Assembly: GCA_963835575.1 (NCBI GenBank) | Contig: CAWIGG010000002.1 | Coordinates: 1 to 64,000, forward strand | Direction of reading: 5' to 3' | DNA: 64,000 bases | Source of the DNA: an uncultured Spirochaetota bacterium | GTDB taxonomy: Bacteria > Spirochaetota > Brevinematia > Brevinematales > JAOACQ01 | Position numbers: made by a program | In this document: positions 1 to 4,219 of the stretch, piece by piece | Numbering within the stretch: position 1 is the first letter of the stretch | Layout of the letters: every line of letters starts with the position of its first letter

Positions 1-3000
1 GGTTCAAGCCGAAACCGATGAAATACCGGGAACACGATTTTGAAAAAAATGAAGCTGATAATACTTATATATGACCGAATGGAAAAATATTAAGCTATAA
101 GGGATACCAGAGGCAATTGAGTAATTTCGGCCATAAATATCAGGCCAGGCAGGCGGATTGTTCAAAATGCGGAAAAAGGGGACAATGCTTAAAACATCCC
201 GATAAGACAAGGCAAAGAACATTATATCTGGTAGTCAAAAGAGGGGATAAAAACTATTCAAAAGAAATGGTAAATAAAATTGATCTGCCGGAAATCAGGG
301 ATTTGTACAGCCGGAGGATGGGAATAATTGAGCCGGTATTCGGTAACATCCGTTCTTGTAAAGGTATGGACCGTTTTACGCTCAGGGGTAAGAGTAAGGT
401 TAATATCCAGTGGCTTTTGTTCTGTATAGTGCATAATATTGGTAAAATCCAGATATTTGGTAAGATTTAAGGGGGTGTTCATAGCCATAATACCGGCTTG
501 AAATTGGAAAAATGGCAAATCCGGATAGAGAAATGAAAAATGATACTCTATCCGGCTTTCAGAAGACAGTTTTTATTCTCGTTTTTGGCTTTTTCGACAG
601 GGTCGTTGTACGAAGTTCGGCGGCAATTATTTTTTCCAAGCTACTATTTTATTCAATGGATGCGTATGTTTAATACCACCTGGGTGTTCATCATCAAAAA
701 TGTAATTTTCATATAATTCAATTTTCCAATCATTATACAAAGTTTTTAATTCATCATCATTAAATAATCCTTTCATAAATTCAGCTAAATCTGGAGTAGG
801 CGCAATCTTGTTAGTAAAAACTACAACAACATTGACTCCATTATTGTTTGTATGTTGTTTCATTTCTTTAATTGATCTTTCCCATTCTTTTCTGTTTAAT
901 AAATGTAAAACACCATGAGAAATTATAAAATCATAATTTTGTTTAAATTCATAAGTTGATATATCTTGAACCCAAGCATTAATTTTAATTTTTTTATTCT
1001 TTGATATACTCTTTAATTTTTCAATTCCAGATTCAGAAATATCGAAAGCATCAACTGAAAATCCTTTTTCCGCTAAAAATAATGCATTCCTTCCTTCACC
1101 ACAGCCCATATCTAAAACCTTTATTTCTTTTGACAAAGTATTAGATAAATAAATAATTTCTTCACTTGGTTTGCCAAAAACGTTCGAATTTTTAACTTTG
1201 TAAGCTTCTTCCCAAAAAGGTTTATCCATATTTACCTCATTCTTCAATGAAAAGCCTGCCGCCGAATTTCGTACAACGGTCGGCGTTTGCGAAGTCGCTG
1301 AGGCTTAGAAAATGTTCACATTTTCAAGCCGAAGCGATTTGTCGAACCTTTTGTCCTTCTTCTCCGTCCTACCCGACAAAAGGTGAGACCGAGGAGCGCG
1401 CGCATCCAGCACCATTTTGTTCTGCTTCCTGTTTTTGCCCACAAAATGGTGCTGGAGAGCACGCACCGCAGCGCAAAAGCCGTGTTGGGCGAAGGTTTTG
1501 CCCATTATAATTATTCGCCTTCTAAATGCCATTTTATAAATACAGAATTGTCATATTCATAAATTACTGTTTTACAATAAGTAATCGGACTGTTTTCATG
1601 ATATTCAATGAAATTATTTCCCGCTTTGTTGTATATGTTTAGGGAATAATCAATTTTAGTATTATCAGAAAAATATGTTCCTGATGAATTATTTGATGGA
1701 TATTCTTTTAATTGTCCGTCTCCATAAAATATATTAAAAATAATTAAATATGCTTGCTCAATTCTAATATCTTTTAATTGAATAAAATCTTCATCGTATG
1801 ATGATTCATTATCATGATGTGAATAAATAATTAAATTGCTATAATTAAAAGCATTAGTTTCAAAACCAGTGAATATTTGATCTTTATTTAATGAAAGATT
1901 ATTTTTGGCCCATTCAGGAAAAATTGAGATAAATTTATTTGTATTTGGATATTTGAGAAGATATCCATCAAATAAATATCCTATAATATTACTTATTTTT
2001 GTTGAAATCCAATAACCTTTCATTCCATCTATTTTATCAATTTTATCGATGCTATCTATTTTTATCTGTGTTGAAAATAAGACTTTTGATAGTATTTTTG
2101 AATTAATTGAAGGCTTTTCTCTTAGGAATAAGCCATTTTTGGCCCAAACATATAAATAATCATTAATTTTATAAAATAATTTTGGACTTCCTTTTGAAAA
2201 TAAAAAAGGAAAGGTGATAATTAGTAATAAAAATATTATTATAGATATTTTCATCTTTTACCTCCAAGATGGCGGTCCGACTTCAAGACATAGGTTACAC
2301 TTTAGCTTCAGGACATCGGTAACCCTTTTTGAGTACAAAATGCCCTTGAATTACTATTTCAGTATAGACCTAAATATAAAAGTATTCAAGTCCATACTAC
2401 CTATCAGATTATTTTCAAACCACACATCCATAAAAGCTTTGCTTTTACTTTTTAAACCAATATGATAACCATCCAACGCATTTGTAATAAATACACGCCG
2501 ACCTTTATAATAAATGTAACCTCTGTTATTAACCTTTCTGCTGATGTATCCCTTGGGATATACAACCCAATCGGCTATCCCATCATAACTCCTAACCGAT
2601 TTTATATAGACCATTGCTGGTGTTTTCATTCCAAGGCTTTCATGCGGTCTTTCCTCGTTGAACTCTTTTCTCCATTCGTTGAATACTGCCTGGTGCAGCT
2701 TCAGGCTACCGCTGATTTTGTTTTCCAGTTCCTTTTTCATATCCAGGTGCATCCTTTCATGTGCTCCGTTCTGATAGGGAGAGCCGGGATCAATTCTGTC
2801 CAGCTTTATGCCCAGAGACAACCACCATGCTGATAGTCTGGTTAAACCAAGTAAACCCTGTGTACTGGCAAACGGCGGCCCATTATCGGATTTTATCATA
2901 CTCGGTAATCCATATTGCTTGAAGAGTCTGTCAAATTCAAATTTGACGGAACTAATATCACCTTTTTGCAGTATGGCTATGGATAAAATATATTTGGAAT

Positions 3001-4219
3001 AATCATCACGTACTGTAAGTGGTTCGCATCTTTCCTGCTCGGAGGTATACCACCAGCCTTTGAAATCCACTGTCCAGATATCATTTGGTTTTTTCGGTGC
3101 TACCCTGTTCTGTATTCTTTCCGGATGTATGTGTCGTCTTCTTTTCCTTAATTCTACAAATCCGGCCTTTTTCAATATCCTTTCGACAGTGCTTAATGAA
3201 GGAATTTTATTATCCGGGTGGTTCCTGACATAAACCGACCTGATTTTCTTAGGTCCCCAATTCTGCTTCGTTTGCTTGATACGGATGATCTCGCAGATTA
3301 TTTCTTCAGAAAGTTGATTAGGGCTTGAAAGCGGTTTCCTAGATTTTTCTTGAAGACCGGACAACCCTTCTTCATAAAACCTTTCTTTCCACTTATAACC
3401 GGTTTTTGTGCTGATCCCATATTCAGTACAAAGCTCGGTAAAGTTCACACCTTTTTGGAATGACTTTTCAATAAAAGCTAATTTCAGCTTCATGATATTA
3501 ACCTCCTTCCAGGGCATTGTCAGCCTCCTTAATGAGATCTGACCTAATTATACCTGGAAAGTGTTACCTATGTCCTGAAGCTTTTCCGTTACCTATGTCC
3601 TGATTTCACCAGCAAAATGGCGCCTAACGGTGCGGCTATACGACGTTTTGCGTCCCGTAGGGTTGGCGCGGCTTTTGCATCCCACGCAGCAAAAGACGTG
3701 ACAAAGCAAAATGTGTCCGCAGGACCGAGGAGCGCCCGGAGCCGCGCGAGGACGGAGCGGAACGTGTACGCCTTGTTGTACGAAGTTTTCCGGGCCGAAT
3801 GTTTTACCAAAAAGCCGTAGCCAGGACGGCGGAGGCTTTTATCTGTTTTTTCTTTTTGGGTTCATAGGATACCATCCTTTTTCAACCCTCTTTCTCTGTT
3901 CGAAAATTTCTAATATACTCCATAAAGAGGAAAAGCCCGCCACGCTCAGGACGGCCCTAATGATATTATTAGGAATAAAAACAGAAGCTCCGCAAAGAAT
4001 TAAACCAAGACCTAATAATAAAGGCCAGATGGACACACTGAAATAGTATTCACCCCAAATTACTAATGGATGAAATAATCCGATGATTAAAAAAGCTGCT
4101 ATTCCAATTATTAATCCATCAAAAAACATAAAATCCTCATTTTTAATAATATTTGAATAAAACAACTGCGGCAGAATTACCTACCGCAGTTTGTTCTTAA
4201 TAAAATGTCCTTAATGTTA

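Follow-up and report, generated by a model that had tools for sequence, protein, structure and literature searches.

The window, by which we mean the whole analysed stretch of 64,000 nucleotides from an uncultured Spirochaetota bacterium, carries near its start an insertion sequence lodged between an attC-like site and the gene of the cassette that follows it. The relevant features, read along the minus strand except where marked, are:

46684–47745, minus strand: tyrosine recombinase of 353 aa that heads the co-oriented cassette array, candidate integrase for the attC-like sites
3622–3781, minus strand: attC-like site of 160 nt, with R'' GTACAAC at 3775–3781, R' GTTAGGC at 3622–3628 and the crossover GTT at 3626–3628, untouched by the insertion
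3611–3625, minus strand: first 15 nt of the invaded cassette, remaining between the crossover triplet and the element
2274–3610, minus strand: insertion sequence, with right tip ...GGACC (5'-GGT on the opposite strand) and left tip (G/T)GTGAAATC, delimited by identity among five copies
3563–3610, minus strand: left end, a tip and two 16-nt repeats (3588–3603, 3563–3578), from the five-copy comparison
2354–3517, minus strand: transposase of 387 aa in one frame, with two helix-turn-helix domains, a DDE core (D151/D211/E254) and a C-terminal beta-barrel (about 320–385)
2274–2323, plus strand: right end, a tip and two 16-nt repeats (2283–2298, 2308–2323), inverted relative to the left end, from the five-copy comparison
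1511–2254, minus strand: the invaded cassette's gene, coding for 247 aa with a weak SH3_3 match that stays under the cut-off, its ribosome-binding site kept and its start 19 nt behind the element
1271–1490, minus strand: unoccupied attC-like site closing the invaded cassette, from profile search and pairing
627–1247, minus strand: next cassette gene, a TehB-like methyltransferase, in a cassette whose start pairs with its own end

We set the limits of the 1337-bp element where identity stops among the five copies in this genome (4.39 Mb in 7 contigs), that is, from (G/T)GTGAAATC to ...GAAGTCGGACC. The right end therefore lies 16 nt further out than in the range 2290–3625 given by the survey's finding, which at its other side took in the 15-nt cassette leader. 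The five 1.3-kb copies with a 387-aa transposase that the survey listed are present where it placed them, and their transposases are 100% identical. As the copies follow five different leaders and precede five different downstream genes, they are not duplicates of one cassette. The right tip reads GGT in all five and in most relatives, and the left tip TGT in three copies and GGT in two; the copy at C2:2040416 measures 1312 bp, having lost one of two 25-bp repeat units at the left end. The non-coding ends measure 93 nt on the upstream side of the gene and 80 nt on its downstream side, and the 16-nt repeats occupy roughly half of each; by analogy with ends of the TnsB/IstA type these repeats are probably transposase-binding sites. 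The element has no Rfam match and no long non-coding region from which a guide RNA might come, and it encodes neither an ATPase nor a target selector as a helper. The best promoter-like site, inside the left end, may drive the transposase; a search for an IS3-type junction promoter gave nothing convincing (7 promoter-like sites versus 3.4 in shuffles). One contig of the set X1 carries the left junction of the C2:1248084 copy, which is weak support because X1 may be the source sample, and four low-depth contig sets (shares 0.47, 0.09, 0.05 and 0.00) contained no empty site or circle joint. Among 60 near relatives of the host only two gave a match, both distant, and most lack the element.

The transposase has HTH and rve domains in Pfam searches and is read in a single frame with no programmed frameshift. 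Its best family model is the IS481 model of NCBIfam (NF033577), with 215.3 bits against a cut-off of 224; the earlier assignment to IS481 thus stands as the best family match, although the protein falls just below the threshold of that family. D151, D211 and E254 are invariant or nearly so among 48 proteins. A structure model built from a 48-row alignment (pLDDT 88; a single-sequence fold with pLDDT 36 was discarded) predicts two helical domains, the DDE core and the C-terminal barrel, and its best structural matches are TnsB, IstA, MuA and retroviral integrases, whereas a sequence search of solved structures returned no match.

A profile seeded on just five unoccupied cassette ends (a de novo search for AAC...GTT arms proved too noisy for counting sites) found 47 ends with GTT at E<0.05, in 44 distinct contexts, and recovered all five occupied sites. 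These are real cassette boundaries, with complementary R'' and R' boxes, bounded at G|TT. For 17 of 26 pairs of neighbours, the opening 20 nt of the cassette match its own end as the reverse complement (at least 12 of 17 positions), several of the misses being ends split by an IS1182-type element or seemingly wrong picks of partner, and identical cassettes recur between different neighbours. The arms of the window site pair with bulges, while free folding leaves the R box unclosed and yields a modest z of -1.46; canonical attC has two or three extrahelical bases at fixed spacing, as described in the sections consulted of PMC3053210. As a separate observation on these arrays, an IS1182-type end follows the R'' triplet of the cassette with the TehB-like methyltransferase, at 607, and such ends lie directly behind 12 AAC triplets in this genome.

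The nearest solved relative of the recombinase heading the array is VchIntIA, but in place of about 69 residues of VchIntIA the recombinase has about 27, so that the IntI insertion is absent. A similarly short spacing, of 60–64 residues between two motifs, was obtained for 29 of 35 relatives examined, one being unmeasurable and five lacking a readable frame. Neither this genome nor five host genomes of relatives of the element has a gene above the cut-off of TIGR02249 (IntI), and a gene related to the insertion-less recombinase is present in those five. Three of five further host genomes do have a full IntI, but sites of the targeted type are absent up to 10 kb from it; in one genome (G064) the targeted array follows an insertion-less recombinase gene. 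Because the recombinase lacks the IntI insertion, we call the sites attC-like rather than canonical attC.

The position of the element relative to these sites is almost constant. In the five copies the GTT triplet and the left tip behind it (counted from the G/T of its first base) are 15, 16, 17, 16 and 16 nt apart; the orientation is the same in all of them and ACCGTT(A/G) precedes each, so that this part of the survey's finding held on re-measurement. By chance a single insertion would fall in this way with a probability of 1.6e-5 and all five with about 1e-24. The element almost certainly targets a fixed place behind attC-like sites. Anchoring on the downstream gene, by promoter or ribosome-site targeting, was considered and rejected: the first long frame begins 19, 61, 63, 27 and 41 nt behind the right tip. 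The estimate that a third of the attC ends (5 of 15) are occupied has to be lowered, since the profile seeded on unoccupied sites puts occupancy at 5 of 47.

To follow this habit beyond one genome we collected 80 loci from named genomes, 80 from metagenomes and more by genome searches. In a FastTree tree of 143 intact proteins the window enzyme falls in a clade of 57 rows (local support 98; no bootstrap). The register comparison covered 91 loci, comprising the clade members and 16 frameshifted or partial relatives assigned by hand; 20 were set aside for left flanks that were unreadable or too short, leaving 71 testable loci that are partly non-independent, as several share genomes or left flanks. 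Pyrimidine-GTT-purine stands in the same register at 66 of the 71 (one reads ATT); automatic end calls disagree on L197, L225, L227, L229, L009, L208, L136 and others, and 66/71 is the count we use. The five exceptions comprise one copy that has decayed, one with a partial end, one whose flank contains a gap, one for which the end call failed and one that is turned with its right end towards the site. A stricter rule that includes the L' box is matched at 174 of 29,567 random positions (0.6%), and one register match in a sister lineage (L165) is taken as chance. The register is kept across clade proteins that are about 54% alike on average, and is unshifted over site lengths from 59 to more than 200 nt. 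Most of the named hosts belong to the spirochaetes (Leptospira, Turneriella, Marispirochaeta and unclassified Spirochaetia). The register is seen in seven of the eight Turneriella copies, and in 4/4 and 5/5 copies of two near-complete genomes, G300 and G288, with arrays of 95 and 86 site motifs. Thus the observation of a DDE transposase inserting just behind attC-type sites holds both here and across the clade, and the reservation that there were five copies only is answered by the clade loci.

Where both flanks are available, 24 of 62 loci show a target duplication of at least 3 nt; 20 of the 24 are 3–4 nt long, and 22 start at +12/+13 behind GTT. The staggered duplication points to a duplex target beside the site rather than a folded single strand. 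The cut falls outside the R' box and leaves the attC-like site, the ribosome-binding site and the gene whole, and hence the element is a passenger of the cassette. The remaining 38 loci show no clear duplication. Collapse of short reads explains some of these, but not those of G300 (0/4 with a duplication) or G288 (2/5). In the genome studied here two copies have clean duplications and one has GGC plus two extra bases matching the flank of another copy; the window copy repeats only GC, and another copy is hybrid, yet its right flank starts in register. Shared flanks occur elsewhere too: three copies in G300 share 92–100 nt upstream, which is the right half of the site plus the leader, and three in G288 share 27 nt, and in the two G300 copies with a readable cassette end the shared leader mismatches the cassette's own end. 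Gene conversion between copies explains these irregular flanks, and one-ended transfer resolved via site homology explains them too. Siguier et al. (bioRxiv 10.1101/2022.12.17.520857), in the parts of the preprint consulted, proposed gene conversion for missing repeats.

As to how the place is found, we lean slightly toward direct reading of the target DNA by the transposase. The enzyme itself would recognise the asymmetric right end of the site, namely the L' box, C-GTT-R and the G and A at +8 and +11. The target consensus drawn from 59 loci has C at -1 and A at +11 in every one of the 59, and G at +8 in 53. The first two letters occur in 46/47 and 47/47 R' ends, as against 7/46 and 3/46 R'' ends on the other strand; judged from sequence, these two bases could give the polarity, without showing choice among the R' ends. 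The short core motif has 229 matches in the genome, of which 42 are in sites, and all five copies are in sites; it is therefore insufficient, and the L' box, structure or a bound protein must add to recognition. With the L' box included, 35 of 39 genomic matches are in sites. In the lineage of the window element the effects of sequence and hairpin are inseparable, but a sister lineage has 8 of 11 copies with the right end 22–23 nt from the triplet and the other three outside attC sites, all on linear look-alikes of the site end, in the same register, that lack the AAC/GTT triplet. These look-alikes rank in the top 0.2%, 0.07% and 0.5% of positions in a 14-nt window that was chosen after the three copies had been seen; with a 26-nt window two of them fall to about 4–5%. 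They favour readout of sequence, in a comparison that uses three copies of a different lineage. For ISAba32, Siguier et al. hold that sequence alone is not what is recognised (10.1101/2022.12.17.520857, parts consulted).

Clade-specific residues would probably do the reading: N330-x-R332 in the loop of the barrel at the C-terminus, K185-G186-D187, and P214, which lies three positions after the second catalytic aspartate. A comparison of 33 proteins of the attC clade with 51 sister proteins of similar mean identity gave 25 positions conserved in the former and not in the latter, including all of these and N346; 17 lie in the catalytic core and 4 in the barrel. N330 is present in 100% and R332 in 97% of the 33, as against 14% and 10% of the 51, and R332 is kept in the lineages that face attC-like sites with their right end. 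From the alignment these 25 are target-reading candidates only and may merely reflect descent. In retroviral integrases, target bases are touched by Ala188 and Arg329 (PFV) and Ser119 and Arg231 (HIV), according to the sections consulted of PMC4005685, and by analogy we infer that clade-specific residues occupy equivalent positions.

A second explanation, which we regard as rather unlikely yet the strongest rival, is that the transposase is brought in by a protein bound at the end of the site, either the cassette recombinase or some other host protein, the 15–17 nt being the edge of that protein's footprint. Such recruitment would account for a distance and a polarity that stay fixed although the sequence of the site varies; an insertion-less recombinase is at hand in this genome, the five host genomes that were checked carry a related gene, a distant lineage inserts 16–17 nt from dif-like sites, which are likewise sites of tyrosine recombinases, and contact with a protein has also been proposed for ISAba32 (10.1101/2022.12.17.520857, parts consulted). 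However, the off-array insertions fall on linear look-alikes lacking the triplet, sister lineages use arrays of 7-base words that are not known recombinase sites, and one enzyme clade would need to bind recombinases that are only 39–49% alike. A predicted complex of the transposase with the window recombinase scored 0.00 in two runs, which is uninformative either way.

We consider it improbable that the target is structural, that is, an extruded attC cruciform or a bent duplex at its foot, with the letters mattering via the fold only. It is true that every target is a long, imperfect palindrome, that in 46 of the 52 targeted sites of the clade the fold of the bottom strand is better than that of the top strand, that in the 17 of 26 pairs noted above about 20 nt of the cassette start pair with the end of the same cassette, and that the word arrays of the sister lineages are repetitive as well. 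Polarity, however, is strict, and no copy sits at the mirror (R'') end of the hairpin in this genome or among the clade loci, which excludes a generic stem-loop as the target. The genome contains 387 perfect GC-rich inverted repeats, and none of the 372 outside sites is used; 15 are at sites, and the sole one beside a copy is part of an attC-like site. Moreover, site length varies from 59 to more than 200 nt with no shift of register, and the window site folds weakly. The earlier doubt whether the stem-loop rather than attC as such is the target is thus answered against the generic stem-loop. That there is no targeting at all, and that random insertions survived only here or an old insertion spread by cassette copying, is very improbable: the shared left flanks of three copies each in G300 and G288 do show that copies are not all independent, but the five copies here have five leaders and five downstream genes, selection cannot give a register of one base either way when cassette DNA offers many dispensable places, and the register holds across proteins of about 54% average likeness.

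The element probably moves by way of a circular intermediate, in the manner of IS3-type elements, and the ragged left junctions would fit this route. Its gain would be a harmless, repeated landing place that is itself mobile.

Relatives use other landmarks. 1) Outside the attC lineages, at 39 of 54 loci whose proteins are at least 42% identical, the right flank carries a 7-base periodic array within 60 nt, compared with a background of 25/4739 and 0/65 in the attC clade. 2) In a family of about 40% identity, 12 of 14 loci have the right tip 16–17 nt from a 28-bp site, ACTTCC.A.AA-N6-TTATGTC.CAT, which we take to be dif-like. 3) Three elements (L039, L051 and L126) are turned the other way, their right end lying 16 nt from an attC-like site, and therefore orientation has flipped more than once. 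We tentatively raise the possibility, to which we give less than even confidence, that the GGT-ended IS481 subgroup consists of single-protein, guide-free, site-targeted transposases whose landmark has been switched several times (attC-like ends on either side, 7-base word arrays, dif-like sites) via small changes in a target-reading surface such as the barrel loop, and that there is in addition a one-ended spread at attC, in which transfer is precise at the right end and the left side is resolved via attC homology, the leader of the donor being carried along.

To our knowledge, the elements known to target cassette recombination sites use RNA, namely IS1111 (seekRNA) and group IIC introns; the IS1111-attC group was reportedly the subject of Tetu and Holmes in 2008 and of Post and Hall in 2009. 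The element described here would be a protein-only DDE enzyme doing the same job with a precision of about one base across much of a phylum. Its close relatives with other landmarks, together with a short list of residues, make target finding at a distance testable by exchange. Large cassette arrays of spirochaetes, such as the two with 95 and 86 motif sites, form a class that has been little described; the element marks this class and offers it a route for deletion, conversion and homogenisation. As an integration tool, too, a small transposase of this kind could be useful, since it leaves genes unbroken and keeps to one orientation and one defined landmark.

A search of the literature on IS481 targeting and integron-like systems yielded no published report of this group of elements; most subscription papers lay outside its scope, as did ISfinder/TnPedia and the supplements of Siguier et al., either of which might list members. 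The sections consulted of PMC3971601, PMC2942039, PMC12444791, PMC7923331, PMC8352920, PMC3607928, PMC2516522 and PMC3053210 contain no account of it.

Among known systems the nearest parallel for the mode of targeting is the ISAba32 subgroup of the IS1202 family. From the parts consulted of 10.1101/2022.12.17.520857, ISAba32 likewise has a single gene, for a DDE enzyme, and a distant relationship to IS481, and it lands at a set distance from a site used by a tyrosine recombinase, with its left end towards that site; some of its copies also lack a duplication, and both protein contact and DNA recognition have been considered for it. However, ISAba32 lies 5–6 bp from the XerC arm of the XerCD site xrs and the window element 15–17 nt from the crossover triplet of an attC-like site. 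Members of its subgroup, as described there, have Q seven residues behind the catalytic E, 400–500 aa, a duplication of 5–6 bp and a poorly defined helical tail, whereas the window element has K261 at that position, 387 aa, duplications of mostly 3–4 bp, GGT tips and a C-terminal beta-barrel. Insertion next to xrs or dif is absent from the window clade and is seen only by dif-like sites in the distant lineage of about 40% identity.

With the IS481 family the element shares a one-frame DDE transposase, a length of about 1.3 kb and a short target duplication, and RefSeq labels relatives of 38–40% identity as IS481 family transposases. IS481 ends begin with 5'-TGT and the target is a short palindrome such as NCTAGN (the ISLxc2 row of PMC2516522, sections consulted), whereas here the right tip is GGT and the landmark is long, asymmetric and at a distance; the two tandem end repeats are a further difference. 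TnsB (of Tn7 and type V-K CAST) and IstA (of IS21) share the HTH-HTH-DDE-barrel architecture and repeated end sites with the window enzyme, but they need an ATPase and, in Tn7 and CAST, also a target selector, neither of which is encoded here. Group IIC-attC introns are also specialised on cassette recombination sites, but they are retroelements whose RNA acts on the attC strand itself by unrelated chemistry (PMC3001079, sections consulted). The IS1111-attC elements (ISKpn4, ISPst6) likewise occur in cassette arrays at a fixed position relative to attC, but according to the sections consulted of PMC11187229 they combine a DEDD transposase with a seekRNA that derives from a long non-coding region, and their insertion point lies in attC, while the window element has an unrelated DDE enzyme, non-coding ends of about 80 and 93 nt and an insertion point outside the site, with a target duplication. 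Hence the IS1111-attC niche that the survey's finding assigned to the element stands as a shared habitat, but the likeness is ecological only, given the different chemistry and target position and the lack of a guide RNA. The window element is thus an IS481-related subgroup with atypical tips, which works like ISAba32 and occupies the niche of the IS1111-attC elements while being a member of neither.

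Pairing between the start of a cassette and its own end, seen in the cassette at 605-1290 of the window and in others, spans about 20 nt and reaches far past the 7-nt R box; at position 11 of this pairing a constant A stands opposite a C, which on the bottom strand makes a G-T pair. At 12 places in the genome, an IS1182-type end stands directly behind an AAC triplet, the triplet of the R'' end of attC-like sites, including the following (C2 and C6 here, and C5 and C7 below, are contigs of this genome):

Window 607, window 43997, C2:1246029, C2:2042218, C6:413820, C6:166853 and others: IS1182-type ends directly behind AAC triplets

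Four of the five cassettes that bear the IS481-like element have an IS1182-type end at their closing site, perhaps because cassettes no longer able to excise keep their passengers. The invaded cassette downstream of C6:167502 holds two short overlapping genes, which, by their motifs, we take to resemble a MazE/MazF-type bacterial toxin-antitoxin pair. Among related elements elsewhere, three loci from two genomes (L005, L006, L029) share an identical 19-nt leader before the element and differ in their right flanks.

A 584-bp cassette recurs many times across three arrays, partly in tandem:

C2:2031347-2034263: recurrence of the 584-bp cassette
C6:425622-424454: recurrence of the 584-bp cassette
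C7:3145-1977: recurrence of the 584-bp cassette

The 300-nt contexts at the end of C2 and the start of C5 are identical, as are those at C6:425038 and C7:2561, suggesting contig overlaps or a duplicated array. In two other, near-complete genomes the cassette arrays are very large and have no integrase next to them: 95 co-oriented attC-like motifs in G300 (C1:2285359-2404258) and 86 in G288 (C1 from 2286798), the sole integrase-like match lying about 1.8 Mb away from the arrays.

Elements of the sister group (relatives of at least 42% identity outside the attC lineages) adjoin arrays of 7-base words, of which there are many different ones, with the array edge at the right end of the element in 39 of 54 cases. 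Another lineage is inserted inside a CCCCRCCC / GGGTGG repeat at all seven loci seen. At L045, regular repeats and spacers form a CRISPR-like array that starts about 35 nt past the element's right end.

L014, L048, L049, L053, L131, L175, L177, L180 and others: sister-group elements at 7-base arrays
L223, L232, L237, L240, L241, L243, L246: elements within the CCCCRCCC / GGGTGG repeat

In more distant IS481-like lineages (about 40% identity), the right tip lies 16-17 nt from a 28-bp site of dif-like form at 12 of 14 loci:

L216, L219-L222, L224, L233-L236, L239, L242: dif-like sites in right flanks

As several such 28-bp sites occur per genome in the hosts of these lineages, they suggest dispersed xrs sites.
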